In this document: positions 33,001 through 56,127 of the stretch, in pieces | Position numbering within the stretch: the stretch's first letter is position 1 | Layout: every line of letters begins with the position of its first letter | Source: Candidatus Omnitrophota bacterium | GTDB lineage: Bacteria > Omnitrophota > Gorgyraeia > Gygaellales > JAQTUX01 | Direction: 5' to 3' | Assembly: GCA_028707125.1 (NCBI GenBank) | Contig: JAQTUX010000002.1 | Location: 433,872 to 497,871 of the forward strand | DNA: 64,000 nt | Notes under the pieces: model-generated | What the model saw: only the letters and a program-made list of their open reading frames with translations | What the model was told of the DNA's origin: nothing | The model's database searches: none | Position numbers and translations under genes: made by a program

Positions 33001-36000
33001 CAATACTGACCGTGCCCTTTACCGAAGCAGGGTCTATTGTCGCCTTGCCGTTAATATCGTATGCCGCCTCCCAGTAGGCACCCGAAAATTCCATGTTACG
33101 CGTCTTTAGCTTTCCGTCGGTATCCTTTACCTGATAATCCAATGATGTTGAAACCGGCGCCTCGGGGGTGGCGATCATAGGATCAATAAAGGTTATCGCG
33201 CCCTTGTGGGTCTTCACGTAATCCTGCTTGTTATCTACGCGGGACTGGAATTTATATCCCCAGGCGTTCAATGTAGCCCCTTCCTTGAAGTTAACCCTGG
33301 TATTGTCGCGGAAAGTAGTCGAGTAATCGAAACCGGGAGCTGATGTCGAACTCATCAGGGATATCGGATTGAACAGCACATAACCGTCTTTCTGGAAACG
33401 ATGGCTGTTGCCATCAAAATAAAGTATGTTCTCCGCGCTGCCTAAGTTTTTCTCTCCCTTAAGGTCGGTAAAATACGGCTGGGCATCTGTCTGGACCTTT
33501 GGAACGCCGTTAACGGCTAAATTGTCTTCATCGTTAAACTCAATCTGCCTTCTGTCAGCGCCTTCAACGAAGTAACTCTGGGCGATAACCGACTTAAGTT
33601 CATTGGCATTGTTTATTGCCTTACCTGCCTCTACCGGCCGCGCCAGCATCAAATTGTCCGTTGTTGTCTTGAACGGCTCTAATTTCTTAAGTTCAATATC
33701 CTGCGCGTTGCCGTTATTGTCAAACTGTGTCGTAAAATCGGCCTTGATGTCCGCGCTGGCAAACTCTGCCACCTTGCCGTCATTTATCTTAAAGGACAAC
33801 GCGTTCATGGCAAATCTGTCCTCTAAGAGGTTCTTTCCTGAACCGCCCACAAGCCTCTTGGTAAAGGTGGTATCTCCGTTCCATTTGTTTATGCGCTCAA
33901 TGTCAAGGGAAGCTACGGCGTTGCCGGCAACGGCTATCTCGCCTGTGGCATGGTAAAGCGCCTTGAAATTATCTTCGGGCTGGATCCTGAGGGAACCGAA
34001 AGGTATGCCTTCTTTAGGGGCGTTCCTAAAACTAAGATCTATGTTGTTCCTGTGAAGCGTGCCGCTCCAGTCAACGTTCCAGCCGTAGCGCGGGTCATGA
34101 GGCACCTGGACCAGTATGCTCGCTCCGGCAGCCGGGGTGAATTCCGTATTGTCGGCCTTGTAATCTTCAACAGCGGCGTTGCGCACAACCTTACTTAATT
34201 CCGCGGGAATTTCAGTAGTGGCTGTCTGGTTCTTGTTGACCGCCCTCTCCTTTCTTTGCGCCCACTTGTTATCAATCTTTGCCAGATAGCCGGCGGCCTC
34301 ATACTGTTTATCCGGCAAGGCCGATATGGAGACCAATTCGGGAGGCAGCTTGGCGATTATACCGTCTTTTATAAAGGATTGGGGAATATCAACGGCAGGC
34401 ACAGGCACCTCTCCTGTCATATCCAGGGTTAATTCCAAATAAGGCGGCTCGCTGGAATCCTTAAGGCGCATGTCCAGCATTTTAAGTTCGCCGTTTAATT
34501 CAAAGGGGCGCGTGCCTGTGGCCAGGTCATGCTTCTCTTTAAGATATATATCCTTGAAAATATTCTTTCCCTGTTTAACCTCACCCTGGCGGAAATAGCT
34601 GCTTTCAAAACCGCCGTACACTATGCGGTCTGCCGCCTTATTGTAGGCGATGGTAAAATTCTGCCCCGGCAGCTCTCTATGTATATTCTGACCGACCAGT
34701 AAGTTGTTCTTACCGGTTATGTTATCAACGATGCCGATGATACCCTGGGTGAGCACTCTTTCGCCCTCGGGATTGATCACGTATCCTCCCAGATCCCTGC
34801 CATTCTCATAACTATGCTGATGCACGATCTGCTTGCCAAGTATCATCTCATGTCTGAGCCCCTCTGATACATTGATGCCGCCGAAGGGAGTGGTCGGCCC
34901 GATCACGGCGTTAACGCGCATCCTGTTGTCTCTTCCGTTGCCTTCAAATATAGCAAAGTCGCCCTTGCTGTTGGGGATCATATTGATCTTATCGGACTTA
35001 GCTATCGTTTCATAGTCGGCAGGCACGTTGGGCTTATTAGCGGCGCCATAGCTTGCAATGTGGCGCTGAAGATCCCTCACCGCTGCCTGGTGCTCAAAGG
35101 GGTCGGAATATGCCGGGTCAAGTTTTACGATGTCTCCTTTCCAATTACTGTCAAGCGCCGCGGCTTGCAGGGTATTCTTATCAGCCGTGTCCGCGGCAAC
35201 GAAGTTCTGAGGAAGAATGTTCAGATCGCTTACGTGCGCGCCGATGCCGTTACTGAGGACAAAATCGCTGGCGGCCTGGCCTCTCTCATTCCATGTTTCA
35301 ACCCCTAATATCTCACCTGTCTTGATCAACCCGGGTATGGCATTCTTCTTTCCATCTAATGCCTTCCAGCTATACTGGGCGCGGCCCGCGGGCAGGATGT
35401 CTTTGCTTTCTCCGGGAATTATAGTATCAAACATCTTGCTGAAGAAAGACCGCTTGATATCGCTGTCCCGGTTGGGATCTCCATCCAGGAGTTTCCCGTT
35501 CTTGTCAAATAATACGCCGCCGTTGCCGCCGAATGAAAACACCCAGCTGCTGTCCGGCCTGACCAGTTTTTGATCTATCTTGGAAGATATGTTTTCGGGG
35601 ATTATTATTGATTTATCCTCATACTGGAAGCCGCGGTGCTCGGTTATGCCGCCCTTGTGCATTTTTATCGCGCCGGCTATGACCTCTTTGAACGAGCCGT
35701 CCGGGTTGAAAAGCACGGAACCGCTGCTTGGGCCCCAGATACTGTTACCCACAACGCGCCTTACGTTCCCCGCGTCAGACCAGGCCCATTTCTGCTGATC
35801 TATGTCCCAGGCCTTCTGCCGGGACATATCCAAAAGGAAAGAACCGCCTTTATCCGTATCAAAACGGTGGTATATTATCTTTTCAGGCAAGATGCCTGTC
35901 TGGGACAGGCCCGCGTGCAATGTCTGTGTAAGTATGCCGGAAGCCGATGAACTCAAGGTCGTGCCGGTATATTTTGCCCAGCCGCTGAAGGCGTTTGGCA

Positions 36001-38338: not shown

Positions 38339-38346
38339 AGCTTATC

Positions 38347-39244: not shown

Positions 39245-40093
39245 TCACACCTCTACCTTGCTGAACTTCATAATTAAAAATATACCTATTATATAAAGCG
39301 CGGCGCCCCCGCCTAAAAGCATCTGCCCCATCTGGTCGTTAAGCATTACCTCAAAAAAGGCGTTGTTCATGGTATAGACAAAGAACCCGAAGGCGATCGG
39401 CAGAATACCCATGATCGTGCCTTGGAGCTTCCCCTGGATGCAGAGCGCGTTGACCTTGCCTATAAGCTTGTTCCTTTCCCTTATGGTAGTCACCAACTCA
39501 GAAAACGTGTCGGTAAGGTCTCCGCCGGATTCCCTGGCCACAAGTATCGCCGTATTGATCAGATCAAGCTCATCGATCGGCATCCTCTTCTTAAGATTGT
39601 TCAAGGACTGCTCAAGCGGCATACCCACGCGGTTCTCCCTCACCACCAGCCCGAACTCCTGAGATACGGGCGCGGGCATCTCTTCAACTAATGCCTCAAA
39701 TGCCTGAAGCAAGCTCAGGCCCGCCTTAAGGGAGCCCGAAAGGATCATCAAGGCGTCAACCAGCTGCTGGGAGAACATTTGCCTGCGTATCCTCTCCATC
39801 TGCTTTATAACCAAAGTAGGCACTATGAGCCCGATGAAACCCGCAGCAGCGGCAGCGAGTATATTACGGAAAACCAAATACGCCCCGAACGCCAGGACAA
39901 CGGGTATTAATACATCAAGGACCATGATCTTGTTAATGGGCAGGTTCAAAAACATCCTGTCAAGCTTAGGCGCGTATTGTTCCATGCGCCTCTGGCGCTG
40001 CCTTTCATACAGCTCTACTGCCAGCGGTATGCACTCATTAATAAGCAGCCCCACCGAACCAAAACTCAGGATAAATATGGCGAATTTGATCAT
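39245..40093 (-). CDS. tadB: Tad pilus inner-membrane platform protein TadB (T2SS-F-like)
   Basis: 282-aa track ORF with a GspF-like domain and TM segments at both ends. There is a 1-nt gap to tadC. Confidence 0.8.
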   Translation of the reverse strand: MIKFAIFILSFGSVGLLINECIPLAVELYERQRQRRMEQYAPKLDRMFLNLPINKIMVLDVLIPVVLAFGAYLVFRNILAAAAAGFIGLIVPTLVIKQMERIRRQMFSQQLVDALMILSGSLKAGLSLLQAFEALVEEMPAPVSQEFGLVVRENRVGMPLEQSLNNLKKRMPIDELDLINTAILVARESGGDLTDTFSELVTTIRERNKLIGKVNALCIQGKLQGTIMGILPIAFGFFVYTMNNAFFEVMLNDQMGQMLLGGGAALYIIGIFLIMKFSKVEV

Positions 40094-43604: not shown

Positions 43605-44859
43605 AACGTTTCTCCGTAAACACAAGTAATCCAAAACCCTCATTGCCCTCTATATTATCGTTGGCATTGTTTCTCGCCTCTCTCAACTTTAAGTCCAGAT
43701 TACTGGGGGTAACATTATTAGTTGCCCAAAGCACTTGAAAGAAAATCATCAAGTGGCTGAGGTACTCTGGATCGGCGATGACAGCCGCCTGATAATCGCT
43801 TACCAAAACAATAAATGCTTTAACGTTGGAAAAATCGCCTTCTCCGGTATTGGTTTCAGCTATATCTATGCTTGGATTCTCTGTAAATGTGTCCGGGGAT
43901 ATATTATGAAGCCCAAGGGGATAGATAAAATGTTCTTTCCCGTTTATCTTTACCAGGTTATTTACCAAGGCAAGCGTTTCATGTTTTAATATAAATGAAC
44001 CGCTGTTTATATTCCTTTGTATCCAATAAGAATTATATCTTTCCGGCTCATTTTTGGAATCTTGCCAGACCTCACCTTCCTGGCTGTCTATAACCCTTAT
44101 ATAATCAACCACCTCGCGGCTGCCCATGCCGCTTCCCTCTCTCCTGTTCTCTACGCTCAACACGCTTTCCTCTTCGCCGTCGCCGTCCAGGTCAAGGCTG
44201 TCGCCTTTAGAAATCTTGTCTACGGCAACATCTTCCCACTCCCAGCTTCTAAGGCGGTCGCCATTTTCAGCAACCCAACGCATCTGTCTGACATTTACGC
44301 GCGAATCCACGGCGTTGTCTTTATCCTCAAAGAACACCGGTTTACCGTCGGCGTTCTTTTTGGGGTCAATATCTTTTCTCTTCCTGGGCATAGCCGACAA
44401 AACAGTCCCTTCCGGCGACTCTAAATGTCCGTCCCTTACATATATCGTCCGGAACCCCGCGGTTGTAAAGGTGTATCTTTTATCGCCGAAATCATAAATT
44501 ACCCTGGGCAAGTCCTCTTGTTTGTCCCAGGTAATGTTGTAAAACAACTTCTGCGTCCAGACGGCAGAATTGAACTGCACAAAAGGCGTACGCTCCGCGT
44601 ATCCGCTCAAACCCAGGGGGTTGCCCGGGTCAGGAACCGGCAGCTGCGTGAATCTGGCGTAGGTTATGGTCCTCGCGTCATTCCGGGCATCGTATGCCTC
44701 TTTATACGACTGCCTGAATACCTGCATAGACAGGCCATGGTTATAGTTAAGCGTCGTCCCGTATTTAACAAAAAACCCTATCACCAGAAACAGCGCCGTG
44801 CCGAATAACGCCAGCTCTGTCAAGGCCTGCCCGGATTTTTTAATTACCGAAATACTCAT
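43552..44859 (-). CDS. Long (435 aa) TadE/TadF-like pseudopilin (…KSGQALTELALFGTALFLVIG…)
   Basis: N-terminal G-Q-x-x-x-E-(L/F) followed by a hydrophobic helix. It is unusually long for TadE/F. Confidence 0.55.
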   Translation of the reverse strand: MSISVIKKSGQALTELALFGTALFLVIGFFVKYGTTLNYNHGLSMQVFRQSYKEAYDARNDARTITYARFTQLPVPDPGNPLGLSGYAERTPFVQFNSAVWTQKLFYNITWDKQEDLPRVIYDFGDKRYTFTTAGFRTIYVRDGHLESPEGTVLSAMPRKRKDIDPKKNADGKPVFFEDKDNAVDSRVNVRQMRWVAENGDRLRSWEWEDVAVDKISKGDSLDLDGDGEEESVLSVENRREGSGMGSREVVDYIRVIDSQEGEVWQDSKNEPERYNSYWIQRNINSGSFILKHETLALVNNLVKINGKEHFIYPLGLHNISPDTFTENPSIDIAETNTGEGDFSNVKAFIVLVSDYQAAVIADPEYLSHLMIFFQVLWATNNVTPSNLDLKLREARNNANDNIEGNEGFGLLVFTEKRYDKDKGWATGHKVEGPW

Positions 44860-45178
44860 ATTTGGATTGCCTCACCTTCTCATCTCCTTTGCGCAATGTT
44901 ACGCTGCTAACCTGCTCTGTAGTGCTTCTATTGCGACCATCCGCCTGGTTCCGCGGATTAATAATACTTGATACAGACACCGAGCCGGTTTCCAGATACG
45001 TATACATACCGGAGTAAGTGTTCCCCGGAGAATACTGCTGGCCTATGTCGTCCGCGGCAAGCCGCATCCTGCCCTGGATCGCGCGCTTAACATAGGTCTG
45101 CATGGCGATCAAGGCGCCGACAATAACGATCACCAGCACGCATATCTCTAACGAGGACTGGCCTGATCTACGCATCAT
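44840..45178 (-). CDS. Flp/TadE-type prepilin-like paralog (…MMRRSGQSSLEICVLVIVIVGALIAMQTYVKRAIQGR…)
   Basis: Track ORF 44840..45217. The likely start is the internal Met. G/QSSLE + hydrophobic helix + conserved 'AMQTYVKRAIQGR'. C-terminal 'KYEYFGN'. Confidence 0.6.
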   Translation of the reverse strand: MMRRSGQSSLEICVLVIVIVGALIAMQTYVKRAIQGRMRLAADDIGQQYSPGNTYSGMYTYLETGSVSVSSIINPRNQADGRNRSTTEQVSSVTLRKGDEKVRQSKYEYFGN

Positions 45179-45188
45179 CTTTCCTTCC

Positions 45189-45650
45189 TTATTCAACCGG
45201 CTGAGTTGCCTCAGCATAAGATTTTGTCCACGTTACTTCTCCGCCTATCGGCTCTGCGCCATCCGGAAGATCGGAATGATCCGAAGGGCCAATCTCCAGC
45301 ACGGTAGCGAATTCCTCATTTACAGCCGGACTGTCAACGCCGTATTGCTCATCTTTTTCGTTGCCGGCCATGAATTCGGTATCTTTAGTGTTGCTTAAAC
45401 TATACGACTCTGCGGCCGATCTTGATATCTCACCCAGCATCAGGTCACGCTCAGGGACGTACTGGTCACGCTCAATATCAAACTCGGGGCCTAATTTTAA
45501 AATACTATTAGCCGAGTTAGCTATGCCGCCCTGGATCGCGCGCTTGACATAGGTCTGCATAGCCACAAGCGCTGCCCCCACAAGAGCGAATACGATAGCG
45601 TATTCGCTCAAGCTCTGGGCTTTAGTCCTCCTGATAGAACCTCCGGCCAT
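45189..45650 (-). CDS. Flp/TadE-type prepilin-like paralog (A/QSLSEYAIV variant)
   Basis: 153 aa with the same N-terminal architecture and an acidic C-terminal extension. Confidence 0.55.
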   Translation of the reverse strand: MAGGSIRRTKAQSLSEYAIVFALVGAALVAMQTYVKRAIQGGIANSANSILKLGPEFDIERDQYVPERDLMLGEISRSAAESYSLSNTKDTEFMAGNEKDEQYGVDSPAVNEEFATVLEIGPSDHSDLPDGAEPIGGEVTWTKSYAEATQPVE

Positions 45651-45692
45651 AGCTGAACACTCCCTGTGAAGTTAAAACTGCCATAAAACACT

Positions 45693-46169
45693 TTAATTGC
45701 TAACGGCCTGTATCCATCGATTATGACTATCAATGGTCACATTACTCGTTGGGCTCGAGGCCTCAGGTATCGTGTCTTCGTCTGAAACAAAACCACCGTA
45801 ATCCGTTGTTGCCGGCTCCGGCTCTTCGTCGCTATCCGGATCCTGTCCCCAGAACTCATGTTTTTGCTTGGCAACGATCTCCCATCCTTTACGGTTCTGC
45901 TGCTGCGTATCGATCTGTGAACCTGACCGTTCAAATTCTCCACCACTCAATTGCACCCAGTCCCTGCTAACTGTGTAAGAATCGGTCTGATGAGCGCTCT
46001 TGGTATAGCCCGGTGAATACTGCTCGCCCATATCATCGGAAGCGCTTCTCAGACGGCCCTGGTAGCCGCGCTTGATGAACGTCTGCATGGCTATGAGGGC
46101 GCCGATGATGACTACTATAAGTATGGCGAATTCCAACGTGGATTGGCCTTTGTTCTCTTTAATAAACAT
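45693..46169 (-). CDS. Flp/TadE-type prepilin-like paralog (MFIKENKG/QSTLEFAIL…)
   Basis: Track ORF 45693..46283. The likely start is the internal Met at ~46169 with an AAGGAGGTGA RBS. The N-terminal half is identical to the next paralog. Confidence 0.6.
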   Translation of the reverse strand: MFIKENKGQSTLEFAILIVVIIGALIAMQTFIKRGYQGRLRSASDDMGEQYSPGYTKSAHQTDSYTVSRDWVQLSGGEFERSGSQIDTQQQNRKGWEIVAKQKHEFWGQDPDSDEEPEPATTDYGGFVSDEDTIPEASSPTSNVTIDSHNRWIQAVSN

Positions 46170-46193
46170 TTCTTCTATCACCTCCTTACTATT
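46008..46193. repeat. 186-bp perfect direct repeat, copy 1 (pilin paralog 5' end + RBS)
   Basis: Identical to 46526-46710 by eye ('cccggtgaatactgctcgcccatatcatcggaagcgcttctcag…cctccttactatt'). Confidence 0.8.
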
Positions 46194-46686
46194 GAGGAAT
46201 TGGCGACGTCTCTGCAGTAGCCAAATTCGTATTGAATTCTGTTGAATATCTACCACTATGCACGGCTGCCTGATCTGCGGCACTCACGCCTTCTAACGCG
46301 TCGGGTGTCTCTCCGCCAGTAATCGTGTGTTTCCGACCTTCGTTTATCTCTTCCGGAACTTCACCCCAGAATTCAAAATTTGACTTTGCCACTGACTCCT
46401 TATTGATCCTGTCTTGATGCTGGTTCTTTATCTCGGAAATAGAAATTATTTTGTTATTAGCGTCGGCCTTTACCCTCTCCTCGTTATGCGCAAAACTTAT
46501 ATTATACTCATCGGATTGCGTGTATCCCGGTGAATACTGCTCGCCCATATCATCGGAAGCGCTTCTCAGACGGCCCTGGTAGCCGCGCTTGATGAACGTC
46601 TGCATGGCTATGAGGGCGCCGATGATGACTACTATAAGTATGGCGAATTCCAACGTGGATTGGCCTTTGTTCTCTTTAATAAACAT
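46189..46686 (-). CDS. Flp/TadE-type prepilin-like paralog (MFIKENKG/QSTLEFAIL…)
   Basis: Track ORF 46189..46716. Internal Met start with the same RBS. Its 5' 186 bp is a perfect copy of the downstream paralog. Confidence 0.6.
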   Translation of the reverse strand: MFIKENKGQSTLEFAILIVVIIGALIAMQTFIKRGYQGRLRSASDDMGEQYSPGYTQSDEYNISFAHNEERVKADANNKIISISEIKNQHQDRINKESVAKSNFEFWGEVPEEINEGRKHTITGGETPDALEGVSAADQAAVHSGRYSTEFNTNLATAETSPIPQ

Positions 46687-46710
46687 TTCTTCTATCACCT
46701 CCTTACTATT
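46526..46710. repeat. 186-bp perfect direct repeat, copy 2
   Basis: See copy 1. Confidence 0.8.
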
Positions 46711-47083
46711 GGTCAACCGGAGCGTGGAATTTCTGCGCCCCCTTTCTCGCTATCTCCTCTCTGTTAATATTTCTCTCAACCTCGCCGCCTTCCTTTACTT
46801 TAGTATCTACCTCGTCGGCTCTACCGGTAGCAAACCTTGATTCAAGATAATACGGCTCATATTGCCCTGTCTGAAAACTCAATTCTGTGGTATTGCCAAC
46901 ATCGGTAAGCGTTATTCCCGTCTCTGTTCCGGCTATTGTCGGCTGAAGCTGCGTAGATTGCTCTATCCTGCCCTGCAGGCCTCTTTTTACGTATGTCTGC
47001 ATGGCGATCGCGGCAGCTACTACCAGCCCGATAAGAACCGCGTATTCCGCGGTATTCTGCCCCTCTCTATTCCGTAGTAACAT
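46706..47083 (-). CDS. Flp/TadE-type prepilin-like paralog (MLLRNREG/QNTAEYAVL…)
   Basis: 125 aa. RBS GGGGGTG 7 nt upstream. Confidence 0.65.
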   Translation of the reverse strand: MLLRNREGQNTAEYAVLIGLVVAAAIAMQTYVKRGLQGRIEQSTQLQPTIAGTETGITLTDVGNTTELSFQTGQYEPYYLESRFATGRADEVDTKVKEGGEVERNINREEIARKGAQKFHAPVDQ

Positions 47084-47120
47084 TTATTTTCACCCCCTTT
47101 AAGCGAATGAATGACTCTGA

Positions 47121-47582
47121 CTATGTGCCGTTAATGGTCCGATTAGCTGTTGCCCCGGGTTTTTCCTGCGTCTGGTATCCTATTCTCTTTGTCTTAGTGT
47201 CGGATTCAGCGCGTAAAACAGCGCCTCCCAGACCTACATGTTCATGTTCAGGCGTTCTGCTGGCGCTTACGAAATCCGAACGAAGATATTCTGGTTCATA
47301 CTGATGCCCGCTTGCGAACAGGTTCTCAGCACCGATAAAAGGCACCGTAGCATTTATGGTCGTATTTGTCGTTGTCGTATTGTTTACGGGATTGGTCGTC
47401 CGCAATACACCCGCAAGACTAAAAGTGCTTACTGTATGCGGCCTTGCGTCTACCGCGTCTTTCACCTTCCCTTGTATGCTTCTCTTAACCAATGTCTGCA
47501 TGCCAATCGCGGCAGCTACTACCAGCCCTATCAGGACGGCGTATTCCGCGGTATTCTGCCCCTTTCTATTCCGTAGTAACAT
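47121..47582 (-). CDS. Flp/TadE-type prepilin-like paralog (MLLRNRKG/QNTAEYAVL…), Thr/Asn-rich C-terminus
   Basis: 153 aa. The N-terminus and 5' leader are near-identical to 46706..47083. Confidence 0.65.
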   Translation of the reverse strand: MLLRNRKGQNTAEYAVLIGLVVAAAIGMQTLVKRSIQGKVKDAVDARPHTVSTFSLAGVLRTTNPVNNTTTTNTTINATVPFIGAENLFASGHQYEPEYLRSDFVSASRTPEHEHVGLGGAVLRAESDTKTKRIGYQTQEKPGATANRTINGT

Positions 47583-47619
47583 TTATTTTCACCCCCTTTA
47601 AGCGAATGAATGACTCTGA

Positions 47620-47847
47620 CTATGTAGTGCCGTTTACTGTTGGCCTTTCTCCTTCTAAAGGCGTATATGTTGCCCTGTAGCTCTCGGTCTTGTCTTGCAT
47701 TTCTCCCGCAACATGCGCTACACCCAACTCAAGATGCTTCTTCATAAGAGCGCTGATGACCACTACCGCAGCCACAATGGCTGTGAATACTATCACGTAT
47801 TCCATTATTGACTGGCCCTTCTTCGCGTTGAACTTCATTTCTTTCAC
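47620..47847 (-). CDS. Short Flp-type prepilin (MKEMKFNAKKG/QSIMEYVIVF…)
   Basis: 75 aa, classic Flp size and motif. Confidence 0.65.
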   Translation of the reverse strand: MKEMKFNAKKGQSIMEYVIVFTAIVAAVVVISALMKKHLELGVAHVAGEMQDKTESYRATYTPLEGERPTVNGTT

Positions 47848-47896
47848 CTCCTTCTTTTAACAAAAAATCCCGGCAAAATTACCGGGATAAATCCTG

Positions 47897-48061
47897 TCAG
47901 GTATTCAGCGGCTCGGCGTTGATCTGATTCTCCAATGCCTTCAGATTCGCCTGCACAGCCCGCTGCACATAAACGCGCATAGCCACAAACGCGCTGACCA
48001 CAATAATTATTAAGACAGCATACTCAAGTGAGGCCTGACCCCTATGCCATCTATTTACCAT
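47897..48061 (-). CDS. Short Flp-type prepilin (MVNRWHRG/QASLEYAVL…); start at internal Met
   Basis: Track ORF 47897..48175 overlaps the upstream gene. The internal Met gives a 54-aa prepilin. Confidence 0.5.
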   Translation of the reverse strand: MVNRWHRGQASLEYAVLIIIVVSAFVAMRVYVQRAVQANLKALENQINAEPLNT

Positions 48062-48063
48062 CG

Positions 48064-48282
48064 CTACCTCCGGATTGACTCTGCTATGCCGCTGAAAAAA
48101 CCTCTCAATCCAAACGCGCTTTCGCTTTTCAAGTAAGCCGCGAACATCACAAAGGTCACCACCGCGAAGGCACAAAAGATCAAAAAATATTCTACTGTTG
48201 CTTGGCCTTTTTTAATTCTTAAGCACTTTGTAAAAGTTTTGTTTAAGTGCCTAATAAAAAAACCGAAAGTTTCTTTCATCAT
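48064..48282 (-). CDS. Flp-type prepilin-like ORF (…RIKKG/QATVEYFLIF…) with uncertain start
   Basis: Has the G/XXXXEY motif, but its first 10 codons coincide with a hairpin + T-run terminator-like structure. Confidence 0.45.
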   Translation of the reverse strand: MMKETFGFFIRHLNKTFTKCLRIKKGQATVEYFLIFCAFAVVTFVMFAAYLKSESAFGLRGFFSGIAESIRR

Positions 48283-48466: not shown

Positions 48467-50065
48467 TTATTGTGAGAACCAGAAACGGCGGCCGGTTTTA
48501 TCAACGCTATTTAGTTCGTTGGCGCGCTTAGAAAGATAGGCAATATCGTTGGTATGGCCTTGCGGCTGGAATTTGATGAGGTTGTATTTATCCTGTTGGA
48601 TCGATCTGCCGCGTAGTTTGAAAACCCGCTCCGTTATATCGTTTAAGGCAATCTTATCATAACCTATTGGCAATAAATGTGTTGCGCAATACTTTATCAG
48701 GCCCCAGCGCCAGGCCTTAAGCACGCTCTCAAAGGATAGCGCCTCAGGTATGTATCCCCTCTCCCCCTGCTTGCGCGTTTCCTCCGTCGAGAAAACATTC
48801 TTCAGGCCGAATGAGAAAAACTCGATCCTCTTGTTGAAATCATCCAGAGCATCCTTGAAATCAGGCCATTTGTTTAAATACGCCCGGGCAACGTCCTCTT
48901 TGCTTAACGACTCTTTATCCATATCTGTCAGCAACACAAGATAATACCTGTCCCGCGAGGCCTTCTTAATGAAAATGGCCCTTAACGTAACTAATTGATT
49001 TAGCTTATGTTGCGTGAATTGAGCCGTCCCTTCCGACAATACGATCTCCTCAAGATCGGGTCCTGGCCGGAAAAAAGACCCTTCTTTTTTATCCTCTAAG
49101 GCGATTTCGGAGGCGTATTGCCCTTCAGGCAGCCCTATTATAAAGTCGGTTTTAAGGCGCGGTATCTCGCAGGCGCTGCTTATCTCCTCTCTGCCAGAGG
49201 TGAAGAACGATATGTTTTTAACGTAGAGATGCGAGGGGAACTTACAGCAGCCGATGAAATCAAGCAGGCCTTGCGGCATCTTGCTCGCTAAGGGGGCGAT
49301 AAAGATAACAAACGGCTCTGTCTTGTTTATGAAGGTATTTTTTATATAAATCTCTGTATTGTAATATGTTGCGTAAAAATCTGACGGGATATTACCATAA
49401 GGCCAGATCGTCCTCGCGCTTGCGTCAATATATATTGAAGAGTCGTCTGATAACACAAATTTCAAATACTGCACCTCTCGGATACGCGGCATAAGCTCTT
49501 TGTATAACCTGAAATTGATTGCTGTATTATATTGCAATTGTTCAAGATAAGATACCAACCCCCCATAATCTATGCCGGCTCCTGTAAGGCGCTCAAACGT
49601 CTCTTTTATATAACTATTTGATTCGTAATCGTTTACGTCACCAAATAGGGAGATGTACAATAAAGTTTCCACGAGCGCCCTGATGTTTCCAGGGGCATTT
49701 TCGGCAGTGGTTTCTTGCAATAAATTCGTTATATAATCAACCCCTCCCAAAGTGTTTTCAATTGCCTTGAGCAAATATAGGCCCATATTCAATTCGCCTT
49801 CTTGAGGGAGTTTTGGGGGCTCCGGTTTTATCTCTGGCCTTATCTCAGGAAGGGGCGGCACAGGCGCCCCCTTCCTGCGCCTGCCAACAGGGCTGCTTAG
49901 ATTTAATTGTTTGATTATATTATTTACTGTGGACTTTGATATTGTCTTATTGAATCTCTGAGAAAGCGTAGCGGATATTTTCCTCGCGCTCAGGCCGGGG
50001 TTTTGCTTCTTAAGATCAGAAATGCTCTGTTTGAGCTCTTCAGTTACTTTGTAGATAACGCCCAT
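48467..50065 (-). CDS. Hypothetical 532-aa protein with N-terminal HTH-like segment
   Basis: Track ORF. The N-terminal '…LSARKISATLSQRFNKTISKSTVNNIIKQ…' resembles a helix-turn-helix, followed by a Pro/Lys-rich linker and a large unassigned domain. Confidence 0.55.
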   Translation of the reverse strand: MGVIYKVTEELKQSISDLKKQNPGLSARKISATLSQRFNKTISKSTVNNIIKQLNLSSPVGRRRKGAPVPPLPEIRPEIKPEPPKLPQEGELNMGLYLLKAIENTLGGVDYITNLLQETTAENAPGNIRALVETLLYISLFGDVNDYESNSYIKETFERLTGAGIDYGGLVSYLEQLQYNTAINFRLYKELMPRIREVQYLKFVLSDDSSIYIDASARTIWPYGNIPSDFYATYYNTEIYIKNTFINKTEPFVIFIAPLASKMPQGLLDFIGCCKFPSHLYVKNISFFTSGREEISSACEIPRLKTDFIIGLPEGQYASEIALEDKKEGSFFRPGPDLEEIVLSEGTAQFTQHKLNQLVTLRAIFIKKASRDRYYLVLLTDMDKESLSKEDVARAYLNKWPDFKDALDDFNKRIEFFSFGLKNVFSTEETRKQGERGYIPEALSFESVLKAWRWGLIKYCATHLLPIGYDKIALNDITERVFKLRGRSIQQDKYNLIKFQPQGHTNDIAYLSKRANELNSVDKTGRRFWFSQ

Positions 50066-50190: not shown

Positions 50191-50532
50191 TTACTGAAAG
50201 GTAATGACATCCCCTGTTTCAGTGCGGGTCTGGCGAGCAGTTCCGGAAGGAAGTTCTATGCAGTAATAAGCCCCAAGATAAATGCCAGAAAGGCGCCAGG
50301 GCTGGAGATCATGCAAAACCTTGATAACCCTGCCCTGCCTTGTGGTAAAGACAGCGTCAATGCTGAATTTCATAAAAAAGGTGTGAATGGAGGTGCAGGC
50401 GGCTATGACCAGGCCCTCTCCCTGATGAAGGGACGTCTTTCCCAAAAGCCCCTTCATGCGCGAAACCAGGGTATCGGCTAAGGCGGCGTTTTCTGCCAGA
50501 ACCGTGCCCTTACCCTGGTTGATTATTTTCAT
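50191..50532 (-). CDS. DUF192-family protein (commonly encoded in tad loci)
   Basis: 113-aa track ORF whose sequence pattern (…GLLGK…GEGLVI…CTSIHTFFMKFSIDAVF…) is typical of DUF192/COG1430. Confidence 0.7.
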   Translation of the reverse strand: MKIINQGKGTVLAENAALADTLVSRMKGLLGKTSLHQGEGLVIAACTSIHTFFMKFSIDAVFTTRQGRVIKVLHDLQPWRLSGIYLGAYYCIELPSGTARQTRTETGDVITFQ

Positions 50533-52691
50533 TACTGCTTGAAGAGGTTATCAGGGACTTCAACACCGTGGGACTTTATTTCCTCTATAAATGAAGGGAT
50601 ATATCCTGTGGGGATGTAGGTGCCGGTGATCCTTCCGTCCTTATCAAGCCCTGTCTGCTTGAATGTAAAAATGTCCGCCATATCAATATGCACGTCGTCC
50701 TTCATGCCGGTGATCTCGGTGATCTGCATGATCTTCCGGGAGCCGTCAGAAAGCCGCGCCGTATGCACGATTATATCAACTGCCGAGGCGATCATTTCGC
50801 GTATGGCGCGGATAGGCAGTTCTGCCCCGGACATCAGTATCATTGAATCAAGCCGGGAAAGGACATCGTGAGTGGAATTGGCGTGTATGGTGGTAAGCGA
50901 ACCGTCGTGGCCTGTGTTCATTGCCTGAAGCATATCCAGGGATTCCGGGCCGCGGCATTCGCCTATTATTACCCTATCAGGCCTCATTCTCAGGGTATTC
51001 CTGAAAAGCTCCCGTATGCTGATGCCGCCCTTGCCTTCTATATTGGGCGGCCTTGACTCAAGCCGCCCCCAATGCTCCTGGCGAAGCTTCAACTCTGCCG
51101 CGTCTTCAATGGTTATGATCCTCTCATTCTCCGGTATAAACTCGGAGAGCACATTCAAAACCGTGGTCTTGCCTGAGCCGGTTCCGCCGGACACTATCAG
51201 ATTCTTACGCACGATCACGCATATCTTTAAGAAATCCTTCATCTGTTCGCTTAAGGTGCCGAACCTCAGCAGATCATTGATATTGAACCTCTCTACGCCG
51301 AATTTCCTTATGGTAAGCATTGGCCCGGTAAGGGAAAGCGGCGGGATGATCGCGTTCACGCGGGAGCCGTCAGGAAGGCGCGCGTCCACCATGGGAGTGG
51401 ACTCGTCAATATGCCTGCCGAGAGGGGCGATTATCCTCTCAATGATCTGCCGGACCTGATCGTCCGAAAGAAACCTCTTGCTGGTCAATTCTATCCTGCC
51501 GCGCCTTTCTATATAGATCTGGTCCTTATTATTGACCATTATGTCGGTTATGTCTGGATCGCTGATAAGGTCTTCCAGCGGCCCTAACCCCAGCGCTTCA
51601 TCCGTGATCTCTTTTATAAGCCGCTTTCTAACCTCAAAACTGGAGAGGAATGCTCCGGTCTCGGCAGCCAGGGCGTTTGACACGGCCTTCTCGGTCTTCT
51701 CCTTTATCTGGCTCACCTTATTCGGATCGATCGTATTCAGATCAAGCCGTTTCAGATCCAATTCTTCTATGATACGCTGGTGCACCCTTTTCTTAAGGAT
51801 GATGACTTCGTCCCTCTCGGACTCTACTCTTTCCGCCAGGCGCAGCGGCTCAGCCAACCCCAGGCGCCGCCAGAAATCTCCTTCCTTGGCCAAAACAGAT
51901 TCTCTTGCCCTCTCCAGCGCCACCTCCTGGTGTTCAATGTACAGGTCCGCCTTCTCAACAAGGACCTTGCCCAGGCCCTTGATCACATTGCTTACCTTTG
52001 AGCGCGGGGCGTCAATTACGATGGGGACCCTTCTGTTCACGGAATAACCCACTGCCTTGCCTTCCGAGGGGATCTTGGCCAGTATCTCACAGGGAAGCGC
52101 TGCCCTTACCTCCTGCCAGGTAACACCCCCCACGCTCTCTGAACGGTTGAGGAGAAGCTTTACCATTTTCAGGGGGAAGTGCAGCGATTGCAGAACATCC
52201 AATGACCACTTGGTCTGATACACGGAAAGTATGTCGGGGGTAACCACCAGGAGGACAAGGTTTGACTGATTAAAGGCATAAAACAGCATCTCAGAAAAAC
52301 CCTTACCCACATCCATAATAACGTAGTCATATTCCTTATTGAGCATCGCGAAGACGTCGCTTATGTATTTTTCCTCAAGGTGCACGCTCTGGCGGGGGCG
52401 GGAGACCGCGGCAAGGAAATCAATTTTCAGATCGGGGAGTTTCAGCATAAACTCCCTTATAGACGCCACCGGCGGCTGTTTCTTAAGGCCGACTATCGCG
52501 TCAAGAAAGTTATACGACGGGCTTATGTTAAGCATGCGCGCCATATCTCCCGGCGCCTGAGTATCCAGGTCAAGCAGGGCGACCTTCTTGCCCTGGTCTT
52601 TTGCTATGCTTACGGCAAGATTGGCGGCGATAAGGGTTTTCCCTACCCCACCCTTAGTGGAGAAAATCGCGATTGTCTTAGCGGAAGGCAT
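50532..52691 (-). CDS. tadA: Fused TadZ/CpaE-like ParA-type ATPase domain + TadA/CpaF secretion ATPase (719 aa)
   Basis: The N-terminus 'IAIFSTKGGVGKTLIAANLAV' is a deviant Walker A of the MinD/ParA/CpaE type. The C-terminus 'IVSGGTGSGKTTVLN…' is a CpaF/VirB11-type Walker A, followed by the His-box region. Confidence 0.8.
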   Translation of the reverse strand: MPSAKTIAIFSTKGGVGKTLIAANLAVSIAKDQGKKVALLDLDTQAPGDMARMLNISPSYNFLDAIVGLKKQPPVASIREFMLKLPDLKIDFLAAVSRPRQSVHLEEKYISDVFAMLNKEYDYVIMDVGKGFSEMLFYAFNQSNLVLLVVTPDILSVYQTKWSLDVLQSLHFPLKMVKLLLNRSESVGGVTWQEVRAALPCEILAKIPSEGKAVGYSVNRRVPIVIDAPRSKVSNVIKGLGKVLVEKADLYIEHQEVALERARESVLAKEGDFWRRLGLAEPLRLAERVESERDEVIILKKRVHQRIIEELDLKRLDLNTIDPNKVSQIKEKTEKAVSNALAAETGAFLSSFEVRKRLIKEITDEALGLGPLEDLISDPDITDIMVNNKDQIYIERRGRIELTSKRFLSDDQVRQIIERIIAPLGRHIDESTPMVDARLPDGSRVNAIIPPLSLTGPMLTIRKFGVERFNINDLLRFGTLSEQMKDFLKICVIVRKNLIVSGGTGSGKTTVLNVLSEFIPENERIITIEDAAELKLRQEHWGRLESRPPNIEGKGGISIRELFRNTLRMRPDRVIIGECRGPESLDMLQAMNTGHDGSLTTIHANSTHDVLSRLDSMILMSGAELPIRAIREMIASAVDIIVHTARLSDGSRKIMQITEITGMKDDVHIDMADIFTFKQTGLDKDGRITGTYIPTGYIPSFIEEIKSHGVEVPDNLFKQ

Positions 52692-52700
52692 AGTTATTCT

Positions 52701-54311
52701 TCAGCGTCTTTTATAAACAATGGGGACGTCAACCCAGAGTTCTCCATCCTGGATCTGGGGCGGAAACGGAGGATAGGGGGACTGCGCTTTGGCAACGGAG
52801 ATCGAGGCGTCATCAATGATCTTGTAGCCGGATGACTCGGTTAATTTTATATCCCCGAGCCGGCCGTTACGCAGGATGCGAAGGCTTAATTTCACTACCC
52901 CTTCCCATCCCGCGTCGCGGGCAACCTTAGGATAATACACTGACCTGGATATCTTGGTCTGCACTGCCTTGACGTATTTGTACACATTTTCGTTGCCCAG
53001 AAAATATGAAGGAGAGACGATATCCGCCTCAAATGAGGCATCGCTCCTCTGCCGGGACATCCCCCCCTTGCGCAGGGAAAGATTGCCGATGTCCTCTTCC
53101 TTTATAACGTGAGGGGTAAGAGTGATCACCAGCTCCGTCTGGTTATTGGTAAAACTTTTTGACCTGAACAGAGCGCCTAAAACCGGCACATCTCCCAGGG
53201 CAGGCCACTTAGTCAAGGTATCGCTGTCTTTATTCTTAATTAAACCCGCCAGAAATACGGTCTGTCCGTCCTTAAGATATAGTTCGCTCTCCGCCTTGCG
53301 CGTGTCAAAGCCGGGTATGTTGATACCGCCTGCCGTTACTGAATTAGCGGTATTTATCTCGCTTACCTCCATTGTCAGCTGGGTAATGATCGCCTCGCTT
53401 TTTGTGTAAGTAGGCTTGATCTTCAAAGAGATACCTATATCCCTGTATTCCACATTAGTGGTAAAATTCTCTCCCAGCGTGCTGGTAGTGACAATGGGCA
53501 CCTCTCCGCCGACAAGGAACTCCGCCTCTTTACCGCTTAAACATACGAGTTTTGGCCGGGAAAGCACCCTGCCCTTGCCGCGCTTGATATACATGTTCAA
53601 TGCCGCGGTCACGTCTGTGCGGGTAAGGTAGCCGATCCTGAATGCCTCCGCCACCCTGTGGCTGAGCGGCTCTGTGGCTATGCCTTCAAAGGGGTTTTCC
53701 GTTACGGTTGTAAGCGGCTGGAGCGTCCAGCCGACGCCCAGATTATCGGCGTCGTCTATAGTCAACTCCAGGATCTGGACGTCTATCTCAATAGAGGTCT
53801 TTGACTCCTCGGTAATAACCGTGTTTACTACATATTGTTTCAAATCGCCCAATACGTAGTCAAGCTTCTCTTTTTCCGCTTCATTCACTACCTGTCCGCT
53901 CAGAAATACCTTCCTCTCATCCTCGTTTATCTTTGTCTGAACTTCGGAAAAACCCGTATCCGCGAGGACCCGCTTGATCCGCGCGTTAACCTGGTCCAGA
54001 TCCACGCTGAATACCTTCAGGCGGAAGGAGTGCTCGCCGAATTTATCCCAGTAAACAAAGGTGGTGGTGCCGTCCGCCTTAGCGTTCACTACTATATCTG
54101 TTTCAGTAACCTCGGCGACATCCGCCACAGCGGGATTACCGATCACCACCCGTGTCGGCTCTTGCGCTTCAAAATGCCTGACCTCATTCACCATCAGCAT
54201 TATCTCTTCAACGCCTTCTATCTCCCCTATATCAAACAATGCCGACGCGGGAGCGGGATGCGACAGTGCCAGTAAACCAACCAGGATAGGAACTAACAGC
54301 GCTTTTCTCAT
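52701..54311 (-). CDS. cpaC: CpaC/RcpA-type secretin with C-terminal TonB_C-like domain
   Basis: Signal peptide. Secretin core '…LVCLSGKEAEFLVGGEVPIVTTS…ISLKIKP…VFLAGLI…'. C-terminal 'YPKVARDAGWEGVVKLSLRILRNGRLGDIKLTESSGYKIIDDASISVAKAQ…PFP' resembles the TonB C-terminal domain. Confidence 0.8.
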   Translation of the reverse strand: MRKALLVPILVGLLALSHPAPASALFDIGEIEGVEEIMLMVNEVRHFEAQEPTRVVIGNPAVADVAEVTETDIVVNAKADGTTTFVYWDKFGEHSFRLKVFSVDLDQVNARIKRVLADTGFSEVQTKINEDERKVFLSGQVVNEAEKEKLDYVLGDLKQYVVNTVITEESKTSIEIDVQILELTIDDADNLGVGWTLQPLTTVTENPFEGIATEPLSHRVAEAFRIGYLTRTDVTAALNMYIKRGKGRVLSRPKLVCLSGKEAEFLVGGEVPIVTTSTLGENFTTNVEYRDIGISLKIKPTYTKSEAIITQLTMEVSEINTANSVTAGGINIPGFDTRKAESELYLKDGQTVFLAGLIKNKDSDTLTKWPALGDVPVLGALFRSKSFTNNQTELVITLTPHVIKEEDIGNLSLRKGGMSRQRSDASFEADIVSPSYFLGNENVYKYVKAVQTKISRSVYYPKVARDAGWEGVVKLSLRILRNGRLGDIKLTESSGYKIIDDASISVAKAQSPYPPFPPQIQDGELWVDVPIVYKRR

Positions 54312-55201
54312 TGCTCTCCCTTTCCGCCTGTCAGCGAAACGGTTTCCTTGCTAAGCCCTCTATATATCTCCACTTGCCTTGCCTGCGCCGGAGCCGTAGC
54401 TGCCTCCTGCGCCTTCTGGATCAACTCGGGATAGATATGCTGTAAGACCATATCCCAGCTTGCGGGCGGGGCCTTGGTAACCTTACTGTCCGCGGGCGAA
54501 CGCAATGACAGCCGGATCTTTCCCTGTTCATGCACAAAAGAGATCAGCGTGGCCTCTTCGGGGCTGACCGCTAGCGTTATAGGCGGGTTTGCCTGGGCGC
54601 TTGAACTCTCGCCGCGGGAGGTCTGCCCCCCTACCGCTAAAATAAGTATATTCTGGAACATCGTCATTGTGGTATTCTGGACGACCTGGTTGCCGTCAGG
54701 GCCGCGCATAGGTATGGGCACGTCTCCCAGCACATCTACATAGTCACCCGGCCGTATCATTCCGCCTACCGCGGCAATATTATCTATTATCAAAGTTATG
54801 GCGCGTTTTCCAGCCGGTGTCTTCATTGCCAGGGTAGTCTCATCTCCCGGCAGTTTGATCTTATTGCTCAGAATATGCTCGCCGCTGGATATATCCAGAG
54901 AGGCGATCTTGCCGATCGCGGCTCCCGTGTGGGTTAATGCCCTGGGCTGTATGGCTGACTTGGGAACCGATTCTACCTTAACGTCCCTCTCTTCTAAAAC
55001 CGTGCCGACGGAAATATCGCGCGCGGCAACAACGACATTAGAGTAATCTTCTTTCTGCGCCCGAGCCATACTCTTTAACCCCTCTTCTTTTTGCTTTATA
55101 TAAGTATTAATAAGCAAAACGGCAAGCGCGCCCGCGATTATGGCTATGGCCAGAGGCATATGTTTCTTGATACCGGAAACGCCAAGGGAGGGGATCGGCA
55201 T
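54308..55201 (-). CDS. cpaB: CpaB/RcpC Flp pilus assembly protein (SAF domain)
   Basis: 297 aa with an N-terminal TM segment and a SAF-like region. It overlaps the secretin start by 4 nt. Confidence 0.75.
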   Translation of the reverse strand: MPIPSLGVSGIKKHMPLAIAIIAGALAVLLINTYIKQKEEGLKSMARAQKEDYSNVVVAARDISVGTVLEERDVKVESVPKSAIQPRALTHTGAAIGKIASLDISSGEHILSNKIKLPGDETTLAMKTPAGKRAITLIIDNIAAVGGMIRPGDYVDVLGDVPIPMRGPDGNQVVQNTTMTMFQNILILAVGGQTSRGESSSAQANPPITLAVSPEEATLISFVHEQGKIRLSLRSPADSKVTKAPPASWDMVLQHIYPELIQKAQEAATAPAQARQVEIYRGLSKETVSLTGGKGEQ

Positions 55202-55206
55202 AAATA

Positions 55207-56127
55207 TTACTCCACCTTATCTTCGTACACTTCTATTTTGGACTTACTGGAAAGACCGCCTATCAATTCTTCGATCTTCTGTTGCTGCTTGAGGAACCTC
55301 AGGCCGTTCTTAATATCATCCCACATCTGCGCCAGCGAGCGCGTCTGTCCGCCTTTCTTCTCTTCTAATTTAATAATGTAGTAGCCGTCAGGGCCTTTAA
55401 AAATACTGCTGGTCTTGCCCTGCTCAAGCGTGGGCGAAAAAGCGACATCCTCAAACTCTTTGAATTTCTGGCCCGCGGCCACAAACCCTATATCTCCGCC
55501 GTTCGCGGCTGAAGAGTCCTTGGAAGAGTTTCTGGCTACCGTCGCGAAATCAACCCCCTGGAGCAGCTGGATCAAGGCCTGCTTCGCCTCATCTTCCCCC
55601 GCCGTGACGATTATCCTGAAACGCCTCTGCTCGGGCTCGCGCAGCTGCTCTTTGAACCTGTTATAGTACTCCTCTATCTCCTGCGAGGTCACGTCTATAT
55701 TGGCCGTCTCTTCCCTGACCAGCTCGGCGACCACGAGGTTCTGCTTCAATTTATTCAGCGCCACCTCTACCTCGGGGTTATCGTCAAGGTTTCTGGCCAT
55801 ACCCTCCTGATAGAGAAGCTCCCTTCTAACCAGTTCATTCCTGAGATAATCCAGTTTTTTATCCCGCGTATCTATCTTAAGCTCTGGCCTGTCCGCGGGG
55901 ACCAGGTTGTTGTAACCCGCAACCTCCTGATTTAAGTCCTCCAAGGTCACGAATGAATCGTTGACCTTGGCCGCGATGGTACCCTGGGGCTTAGCCGCCT
56001 TCGCTTCTGTTGTCTTTTTTTCTGCCCCGGCCTGCTTTTTTAAAAAGGGGATCTGGTCGCATCCCCACAACATAGCTGCTGATAAGATCACGAAAGAAAG
56101 AAAAACATGACTGCCCCTGCCCTTCAT
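55207..56127 (-). CDS. Parvulin-type peptidyl-prolyl cis-trans isomerase (SurA/PrsA-like), probable lipoprotein
   Basis: Signal peptide ending …AAMLWGC (atypical lipobox). A SurA-like chaperone N-region is followed by a PpiC domain ('…GGDIGFVAAGQ…FSP…GKTSSIFKGPDGYYIIKLEEK'). RBS GGAGGT 6 nt upstream. Confidence 0.7.
   Translation of the reverse strand: MKGRGSHVFLSFVILSAAMLWGCDQIPFLKKQAGAEKKTTEAKAAKPQGTIAAKVNDSFVTLEDLNQEVAGYNNLVPADRPELKIDTRDKKLDYLRNELVRRELLYQEGMARNLDDNPEVEVALNKLKQNLVVAELVREETANIDVTSQEIEEYYNRFKEQLREPEQRRFRIIVTAGEDEAKQALIQLLQGVDFATVARNSSKDSSAANGGDIGFVAAGQKFKEFEDVAFSPTLEQGKTSSIFKGPDGYYIIKLEEKKGGQTRSLAQMWDDIKNGLRFLKQQQKIEELIGGLSSKSKIEVYEDKVE

Follow-up and report, generated by a model that had tools for sequence, protein, structure and literature searches.

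A predicted receiver-less TadZ-type ATPase domain fused to the TadA/CpaF-type motor in a Tad pilus locus of Omnitrophota

Background

TadA/CpaF is a hexameric bifunctional motor, and ATPases of the ParA/MinD class dimerise on ATP and act as positioning switches; in the canonical layout of the Tad-associated member of this class, TadZ/CpaE, a receiver domain (Response_reg) precedes the ParA domain. The closest described relative of the protein considered here is the 'atypical TadZA fusion ATPase' of Bdellovibrio bacteriovorus tad locus 1, which combines a ParA/MinD-like TadZ region devoid of the receiver/ARD domain, a flexible linker and TadA (bioRxiv 10.64898/2026.07.08.737194, July 2026). According to this preprint, which alone in the searchable literature names the TadZA architecture, the protein binds the polar hub RomR via its TadZ region and linker, and knock-down of tadZA-tadB lowers predator proliferation. 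In Omnitrophota, a phylum of nanobacteria that is widespread, uncultured and probably predatory or parasitic, Tad pili have been proposed as the means of attachment to the host, and a locus with gspD, gspE, gspF, rcpC and a Rotamase_2 peptidyl-prolyl isomerase (PPIase) has been published with its ATPase called gspE (West-Roberts 2023); it corresponds as well to the Tad complex that Seymour et al. 2023 described for Omnitrophota. Neither study mentions a fused ParA domain, the Omnitrophota papers speaking of Tad or 'gspE' only. Here we describe the ATPase gene of such a locus, which occupies positions 50532-52691 on the reverse strand of a 64,000-nucleotide stretch (the window) of a Candidatus Omnitrophota bacterium contig (JAQTUX010000002.1, positions 433,872 to 497,871). 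An earlier note on this DNA had read the gene as a fusion of a TadZ/CpaE-like ParA ATPase with the TadA/CpaF secretion ATPase. We likewise consider it likely that its product is the motor ATPase of the Omnitrophota Tad (Flp, type IVc) pilus, with a receiver-less TadZ fused to the N-terminus of a full-length TadA/CpaF.

Two ATPase modules in one open reading frame

The gene is a single ATG-started open reading frame (ORF) of 719 codons plus stop with zero internal stops, and both Walker A motifs on which the earlier note had built its case, KGGVGKT at aa 13-19 and GSGKTT at aa 505-510, lie in this one continuous frame. Pfam scans recovered both expected domain types, with AAA_31, CbiA and ParA matching at aa 5-174 (E 1.6e-15 to 2e-12) and T2SSE (PF00437; 217.3 bits against a gathering cut-off of 24.9) at aa 367-647 (E 3e-64). 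The NCBIfam matches follow the same division, with MinD-type models at aa 5-257 and TadA, VirB11 and FlaI-type models at aa 324-676, the TadA-type match itself covering aa 324-658. Position ~51,900, where the note had asked for a check for a concealed frameshift or stop, corresponds to codon ~264 within the inter-domain spacer; the reading frame is open there and through the whole junction, and the lack of any Met codon from aa 177 to aa 384 leaves no ATG start for a separate TadA near it. The full-length protein was modelled by AlphaFold2 with 102 homologs at a mean predicted local distance difference test (pLDDT) of 88.3 and a predicted template-modelling score (pTM) of 0.55, and appears in this model as two confident blocks whose mutual orientation is not fixed.

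Authenticity and distribution of the fusion

Most phyla as a rule encode tadZ and tadA separately, side by side, and in 54 of 80 species-representative loci the 'full-length' tblastn match turned out to be two ORFs lying a few to ~130 nt apart, which a one-base error could in principle merge. The gene might on these grounds be suspected to be a product of a sequencing or assembly error, or of a frameshift near 51,900. Apart from the open frame through the junction, this suspicion is countered by the best 120 clusters at 90% identity (62-81% identical to the query, mostly Omnitrophota metagenome-assembled genomes (MAGs)), drawn from independent NCBI, JGI, ENA and Logan assemblies: in 118 of them the protein has 702-730 aa and Pfam matches of both kinds, ParA-type and T2SSE. 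Three related Omnitrophota contigs (L001, L082 and L083) show the same single gene, as does the complete genome of the cultured Bdellovibrio sp. HCB288, whose ORF is 41% identical to the query end to end over 720 residues. Furthermore, the receiver extension of 140-180 aa that unfused TadZ bears is consistently missing from the fused proteins, a difference that an error could not yield. Because many independent assemblies share both the length and the two domains, chance and a sequencing merge are ruled out and the fusion is genuine and conserved; the artefact explanation is already effectively refuted, and we assign it a negligible probability.

The identical protein is present in NCBI as 'MAG: ATPase, T2SS/T4P/T4SS family [Candidatus Omnitrophica bacterium]', on a 510-kb contig. 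In an exhaustive HMMER search against 1.84 billion cluster representatives, 64 of the 150 best 50%-identity representatives were fused; one 50%-identity representative is named Atribacterota. The fused family is also large in Bdellovibrionota: when a protein from this group served as query, 119 of its best 120 clusters carried both domains at ~720 aa. At the level of ORFs, ten of 80 species-representative loci encode true single-ORF fusions (six from Bdellovibrionota or relatives, two from Omnitrophota, one from WOR-3 and one from Eremiobacterota); the remaining 70 comprise 54 with adjacent separate tadZ and tadA and 16 that matched the TadA part only. An apparent spread of the fusion over ~20 phyla in a tblastn genome scan was dropped once this check had exposed the 54 gene pairs that tblastn had joined. 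The fusion is the normal form in Omnitrophota and in Bdellovibrionota, and public databases already contain thousands of proteins with this architecture. The description of it as non-canonical in the earlier note holds relative to the model organisms but does not hold within these two groups, where it is standard and, in B. bacteriovorus, already described as 'TadZA'.

As a separate observation, one locus from an Eremiobacterota MAG (L018, 9059-12904, plus strand) has a single frame of 1282 codons with ParA (CbiA), T2SSE and T2SSF domains, which could represent a triple fusion of TadZ, TadA and TadB or else a misassembly, the genome being high in GC.

The C-terminal motor module

The motor Walker A motif is part of the sequence GGTGSGKTT at aa 502-510, and S501-T509 are invariant in the 102 homologs. 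The core residues of two further segments, RMRPDRVIIGECRG at aa 568-581 and MNTGHDGSLTTIHAN at aa 591-605, are likewise invariant in the homolog alignment, and we take these segments to be the Walker B/Asp box and the His box of secretion ATPases. Foldseek searches with the model retrieved the cryo-EM structures of Caulobacter CpaF (8RJF, 8RKD and 9E24; E 6e-48 to 6e-43, 42-45% identity, target TM ~0.8), with 8RJF as the best match (E 6e-48, 45% identity, target TM 0.82), in agreement with the assignment of this half to TadA/CpaF in the earlier note. The model contains helices at residues 289-311, 323-348 and 352-367 followed by two alpha/beta domains; in terms of the CpaF domains NTD0, NTD1, NTD2 and CTD (PMC11300603) the block is predicted to comprise NTD1, NTD2 and CTD, that is, a complete TadA/CpaF. 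The genomic context is that of such a motor, as the gene lies in a Tad locus together with rcpC, rcpA, tadB/tadC and flp pilins.

Our survey of TadA proteins also brought up other variations on this module. Eight database proteins of 821-1605 aa (P0121, P0122, P0124-P0126, P0129, P0137 and P0140) consist of complete TadA/CpaF modules repeated in tandem, two or three per protein; most modules have a Walker A motif of their own, and the identity to the TadA part of the query is 42-55%. Such proteins could be motor subunits joined covalently, or they could result from faulty gene calling. In eight loci of Proteobacteria, Myxococcota, Spirochaetota and Lentisphaerota (L032, L039, L040, L042, L044, L046, L047 and L071) the stand-alone TadA has, instead of ParA, an N-terminal extension of ~100 aa that looks FHA-like by eye. 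Many other stand-alone TadA proteins begin with a conserved MSLLxR[IL]E motif.

The spacer and its FW motif

Between the two modules the full-length model has its sole segment with pLDDT below 50, at aa 286-291. Profile-profile comparison with the N-termini of 21 stand-alone TadA proteins (hhalign) is confident from ~aa 293 (DEVIILKKRVH) onward and places residue 1 of stand-alone TadA at ~aa 250, just past the last ParA helix, with near-zero confidence for the stretch in between. The 'linker' is best read as the variable NTD0 of TadA itself, which would fit a read-through fusion of adjacent genes such as the closely spaced tadZ-tadA pairs of unfused loci.

In Omnitrophota the length of the spacer is nearly constant (47-53 residues between alignment columns 250 and 300), and the sampled homologs from this phylum share the consensus G-[DE]-F-W-x-[KR]-x-G-L, which reads GDFWRRLGL in the query; in Bdellovibrionota the linkers span 35-61 residues, with Ala, Gly, Ser and Pro abundant and the FW motif absent. 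In the AlphaFold2 model this motif forms a short helix (272-276). Averaged over aa 271-280, pLDDT reaches 86 when the whole protein is modelled and falls to 60 when the N-terminal part is modelled alone, which suggests that the FW-helix block may pack against the TadA part. The motif could be a vestige of the MSLLxR[IL]E start of stand-alone TadA; global hhalign instead put TadA residue 1 near aa 250, with near-zero confidence. A likeness of GDFWRRLGL to the membrane-targeting helix of MinD is a further possibility that we considered but did not adopt.

The N-terminal module

Modelled on its own (first 290 residues), the N-terminal module attains a pLDDT of 90.7 and a pTM of 0.88, and residues 1-250 exceed a pLDDT of 90 in the full-length model. 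Fold searches return 3EA0 as the best match (TM 0.91, root-mean-square deviation 2.3 Å), then MinD, FleN and FlhG, and the domain is accordingly predicted to adopt the ParA/MinD fold. In phmmer comparisons its highest scores among proteins encoded directly upstream of tadA, 138 and 132 bits, come from two Firmicutes loci with unfused TadZ (L012 and L011; unfused loci range from L008 to L081), with 50 further such proteins at 48-115 bits and two lower, at 37 and 30 bits. Aquifex MinD, which scores highest among the MinD proteins of the PDB, reaches 60 bits, about half the TadZ score. BLASTP gives 141-170 bits for Omnitrophota N-domains against the same two Firmicutes proteins, which have a Response_reg domain (E 1e-26 to 1e-30) in front of ParA. 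The NCBIfam MinD models are missed by ~130-140 bits (TIGR01968, 72.5 against a cut-off of 212.9; TIGR01969, 73.2 against 201.75). As phmmer and BLASTP favor the Response_reg-ParA proteins upstream of tadA over MinD and the MinD cut-offs are missed, we regard the N-domain, from its sequence, as probably of the TadZ type but without the receiver/ARD domain.

The absence of that domain is evident from the ParA domain beginning at aa 5, which leaves no room for it. In unfused TadZ frames the ParA domain starts at residue ~135-180 or later, the N-terminal receiver/ARD extension of these controls being ~135-180 aa long, and in nine of ten fused ORFs it starts at residue ~3-50. Thus the assignment in the earlier note needs the rider that the N-terminal half, which does match ParA hidden Markov models and is closer to TadZ than to MinD, is not a full TadZ, because the ARD that defines canonical TadZ is missing. 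Its coding region nonetheless occupies the tadZ slot between rcpA and tadA, starting 9 nt past the secretin stop. The nucleotide site is well preserved: the query retains Lys13 as signature lysine, Lys18 and Thr19 of the P-loop, Asp41, Asp43 and, in Walker B, Asp127, and in the 102 fused Omnitrophota and Bdellovibrionota homologs K13, G14, G15, G17 and D127 are invariant and K18, D41 and D43 at least 90% conserved. D41 and D127 are kept in both fused and unfused TadZ. The motif KGGVGKT also matches the TadZ Walker-A-like consensus K/RGGxGx[ST] (bioRxiv 10.64898/2026.07.08.737194).

Two other views of this module have to be weighed against its derivation from TadZ. It could instead be a MinD/FlhG/ParA-type ATPase that was recruited independently, for example as a switch that binds membranes or senses the division site, so that the protein would be a MinD-TadA chimera working by another logic. 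This view gains from the archaeal and bacterial MinD models being the best NCBIfam matches (~73 bits, against 46 bits for CpaE_hom_Actino), from Aquifex MinD being the best PDB sequence match, from the missing ARD, and from the second lysine of KGGVGKT, which 34 of 54 canonical TadZ sequences lack. However, those MinD scores lie far under the family cut-offs, and the receiver-ParA proteins immediately upstream of tadA reach about double the phmmer score of MinD. The P-loop lysine is itself kept by the other 20 of the 54 unfused TadZ sequences and by 55 of 85 fused ones in the wider family, and its retention is a feature of the query's clade that does not argue against TadZ identity. The traits of the MinD family are equally lacking: the score is below equivalog, the neighbors are Tad genes, with no minC or minE nearby, and no C-terminal membrane-targeting helix was demonstrated. 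We therefore rate a chimera of this kind as unlikely. The module could also be a degenerate, non-catalytic scaffold, a structural NTD0 extension that only tunes the TadA motor, such as its balance between extension and retraction, and has no positioning role; in favor of this one may cite the replacement of the P-loop lysine in 30 of the 85 fused sequences, the loss of GG in some, and the greater confidence of the FW block in the full-length than in the N-only model, which would fit a motor-contacting motif. The conservation of the nucleotide-binding residues in the 102 homologs argues instead for a working nucleotide site, and the TadZ region with linker of the B. bacteriovorus protein binds RomR (bioRxiv 10.64898/2026.07.08.737194), so that we hold a mere scaffold to be quite improbable.

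Several points nonetheless weigh against the receiver-less TadZ-TadA assignment that we prefer. A fold search alone cannot separate the ParA subfamilies; the best named matches of the N-domain in NCBIfam and in the PDB sequence search are MinD, not CpaE; and the solved TadZ structure of E. rectale is neither among the sequence matches at E <= 0.001 nor among the top 50 fold matches. A separate tadZ elsewhere in the genome is possible, and no prepilin peptidase (TadV) was identified among the window ORFs scanned. Hexamer formation, dimerisation of the ParA domain, ATP hydrolysis by either module and a role in localisation are all inferred by homology, and given the reportedly ultra-small size of Omnitrophota cells polar positioning may not be the relevant function.

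Origin of the fusions

The locus of Bdellovibrio sp. HCB288 consists of flp, rcpC, the secretin gene, the fused ATPase gene and tadB, with no adjacent tadC, as described for tad locus 1 of B. bacteriovorus. Neighbor-joining trees of both domains (100 bootstraps) recover local clades of Omnitrophota (bootstrap 70-90) and Bdellovibrionota (63-100), with support near 0 at the deep nodes; parsimony requires at least 3-5 changes between the fused and unfused states. In all-versus-all BLAST comparisons the Omnitrophota N-domains score 107-144 bits to the best fused Bdellovibrionota proteins and 141-170 bits to unfused Firmicutes TadZ, and the Omnitrophota TadA domains score 438-503 bits to fused Bdellovibrionota and 432-487 bits to unfused proteins. 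By these scores neither domain places the fused proteins of the two groups nearer to one another than to unfused proteins. The scores and the unrelated linkers would fit fusions that arose independently, and equally one ancient fusion whose descendants diverged.

A further and more speculative possibility, which taken as a whole we regard as doubtful, is that the fusion arose independently in Omnitrophota and Bdellovibrionota with the receiver being lost each time, and that the FW helix is a Helix-0-like element which docks on TadA and makes the active site of the motor respond to the nucleotide or dimer state of the ParA domain, for example as a switch between extension and retraction. If true, the independent fusions would represent a convergent hard-wiring of a positioning ATPase to a pilus motor in two lineages that attack cells with Tad pili.

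The Tad locus around the fused gene

The features of the gene and of its surroundings are collected in Table 1. The order PPIase, RcpC, secretin with TonB_C, fused ATPase and DUF192 is shared by L001, L082 and L083, which have no separate tadZ, and no other ParA-like or TadA-like ORF is present within the 64 kb window. The start of the DUF192 gene overlaps the stop of the fused gene (TAATG), which suggests translational coupling of the two, and the DUF192 protein may be an accessory component of the Omnitrophota Tad machine. The helix-turn-helix (HTH) protein encoded next has a homolog at the same position in L001 (9967-11946, E 8e-30) and genes of similar size in L082 and L083. Because its sequence and position are conserved in a related locus, it is a component of the locus and not a transposase insertion. 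The GC content around its gene is lower, at ~44%.

Table 1. Coordinates of the fused ATPase gene, its parts and the surrounding Tad locus in the window
Feature	Position	Strand	Basis
Fused TadZ-TadA ('TadZA') ORF, 719 aa + stop	50532..52691	(-)	single ORF; both Pfam/NCBIfam domain sets; conserved architecture
Predicted TadZ-type ParA/MinD ATPase domain, aa 1-250, no receiver/ARD ahead	51942..52691	(-)	AlphaFold2, fold match, phmmer
Deviant Walker A motif KGGVGKT, aa 13-19; keeps Lys13 (signature) and Lys18 (P-loop)	52635..52655	(-)	translation
Inter-domain spacer, aa 251-288, probable equivalent of the variable NTD0 of stand-alone CpaF; hinge aa 286-291	51828..51941	(-)	pLDDT, hhalign
Spacer motif GDFWRRLGL, aa 271-279, Omnitrophota-specific	51855..51881	(-)	homolog alignment
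Predicted complete TadA/CpaF motor, aa 289-719 (NTD1 289-367, NTD2 368-475, CTD 476-719)	50535..51827	(-)	T2SSE match, Foldseek, AlphaFold2 secondary structure
Canonical motor Walker A GSGKTT, aa 505-510	51162..51179	(-)	translation
SurA-like PPIase (Rotamase_2), first gene of the conserved locus	55207..56127	(-)	Pfam; same position in L001, L082, L083; West-Roberts 2023
RcpC/CpaB	54308..55201	(-)	Pfam RcpC 2.9e-23, SAF
RcpA/CpaC-type secretin with C-terminal TonB_C	52701..54311	(-)	Pfam Secretin 7e-46, T2SS-T3SS_pil_N, TonB_C 5.5e-16
DUF192 protein	50191..50532	(-)	Pfam DUF192 2.7e-18; same position in L001, L082, L083
532-aa protein, N-terminal HTH	48467..50065	(-)	weak (transposase-type) HTH matches; large unannotated domain
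Seven consecutive Flp-type pilin-like ORFs, 92-196 aa, class III signal motif G/xxxxEY(A)	44840..48175	(-)	motif by eye, e.g. RNRKGQNTAEYAVLIGLVVAAAI
435-aa protein, between the Flp-like pilins and the TadG-like protein			locus listing
TadG-like large pseudopilin or tip protein, 934 aa	40424..43228	(-)	weak Pfam Tad (TadE/G-like) N-terminal match, E 0.002; equivalent in L001, L083
Two T2SSF platform proteins (TadB/TadC type)	39245-40093, 38347-39243	(-)	Pfam T2SSF 1e-16, 3e-13
Giant ORF, at least 12,780 codons without stop, runs off the left window end	2..38341	(-)	begins few nt downstream of the second T2SSF gene

The one Flp-like pilin ORF tested had no Pfam match; two pilin neighbors (45693-46283 and 46189-46716) overlap and share near-identical N-terminal ~65 residues. 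A secretin with a TonB-type C-terminal domain is unusual; this domain recurs in the secretins of L001 (5643-7304), L082 (7299-8909) and L083 (8384-9991) and was not detected in that of Bdellovibrio sp. HCB288. Just upstream of the Tad locus L082 (910-4596) and L083 (445-4086) have a conserved divergent module of a FIST sensor, a histidine kinase and a Response_reg-GGDEF protein, which hints at control by cyclic di-GMP; in the window its place is taken by a TPR membrane protein and a glycosyltransferase. At the other end of the locus, the giant ORF agrees with published work that ties giant genes of Omnitrophota to this secretion/pilus locus.

Functional implications

Both ATPase modules keep their nucleotide-binding residues, and the gene fills the tadZ-tadA slot of a complete Tad locus. 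By analogy with CpaF, we propose that the TadA part forms a hexameric motor for extension and retraction of the Flp pilus via the two T2SSF platform proteins, and that every hexamer would carry six tethered ParA-type (TadZ) modules at a fixed 1:1 ratio. These modules could dimerise on ATP like other ParA/MinD ATPases, with which the intact Lys13, Lys18, Asp41 and Asp127 are consistent, and would connect the motor with a cue for positioning or assembly. As the ARD is missing, that cue would have to be supplied in trans by another protein, as RomR does for the Bdellovibrio TadZA. The simplest origin of such a protein would be a read-through fusion of adjacent tadZ and tadA genes combined with loss of the receiver domain. 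As a whole, the machine most likely serves in host-cell attachment, these nanobacteria being probably predators or parasites, and it may help to deploy the giant protein encoded downstream.

The published names of the ATPase in this locus, which lies directly upstream of one of the Omnitrophota giant genes, are "gspE" or TadA; recognition of a receiver-less TadZ-TadA fusion would correct this annotation and link Omnitrophota to the experimentally tractable TadZA of Bdellovibrio. The loss of the receiver predicts that positioning depends on a partner protein, and a hexameric motor with six built-in ParA modules would offer a convenient natural construct for studies of TadZ-TadA contacts. With the architecture already in databases and in one preprint, and the locus published, the Omnitrophota family adds detail rather than a discovery.

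Comparison with known systems

The separate TadZ/CpaE and TadA/CpaF proteins of Aggregatibacter actinomycetemcomitans, Caulobacter crescentus and the unfused loci share with the query the same two modules in the same order, beside rcpC, rcpA, tadB and tadC. The TadA part resembles its canonical counterpart in sequence (45% identical to CpaF 8RJF) and in its predicted NTD1, NTD2 and CTD, and the N-domain is homologous to the ParA part of canonical TadZ. Unlike the query, these systems are encoded by two genes separated by a stop and a gap of a few to ~130 nt, and their TadZ bears an N-terminal receiver/ARD of 140-180 aa. Among ParA-family proteins, the Chlorobium tepidum ATPase of PDB entry 3EA0, a structural-genomics structure, is both the best structural and the second-best sequence match (57 bits) over its full length and also lacks an ARD; it differs in being a stand-alone protein and in its P-loop KGGDGGS, which has no second lysine. 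MinD, FlhG and FleN have in common with the N-domain the fold, the deviant Walker A motif with its signature lysine and the logic of an ATP-dependent dimer, but the query falls below the cut-offs of the MinD family and has neither minC or minE nor a flagellar context.

The nearest parallel is the TadZA of Bdellovibrio. In both lineages an ARD-less TadZ-type domain, a linker and TadA form one polypeptide with the P-loop KGGVGK[ST], encoded right after rcpC and rcpA in the Tad locus of a probably predatory lineage. On the other hand, the N-domains are just 20-28% identical in alignment, and the linkers are unrelated and cannot be aligned, being of constant length with the FW motif in Omnitrophota and variable and of low complexity in Bdellovibrionota. 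The loci differ as well: the fused ATPase gene is directly followed by DUF192 in Omnitrophota and by tadB in Bdellovibrio, and beyond what is found in Bdellovibrio the Omnitrophota locus includes DUF192, the HTH protein, the TonB_C-tagged secretin, both T2SSF genes and the giant gene.

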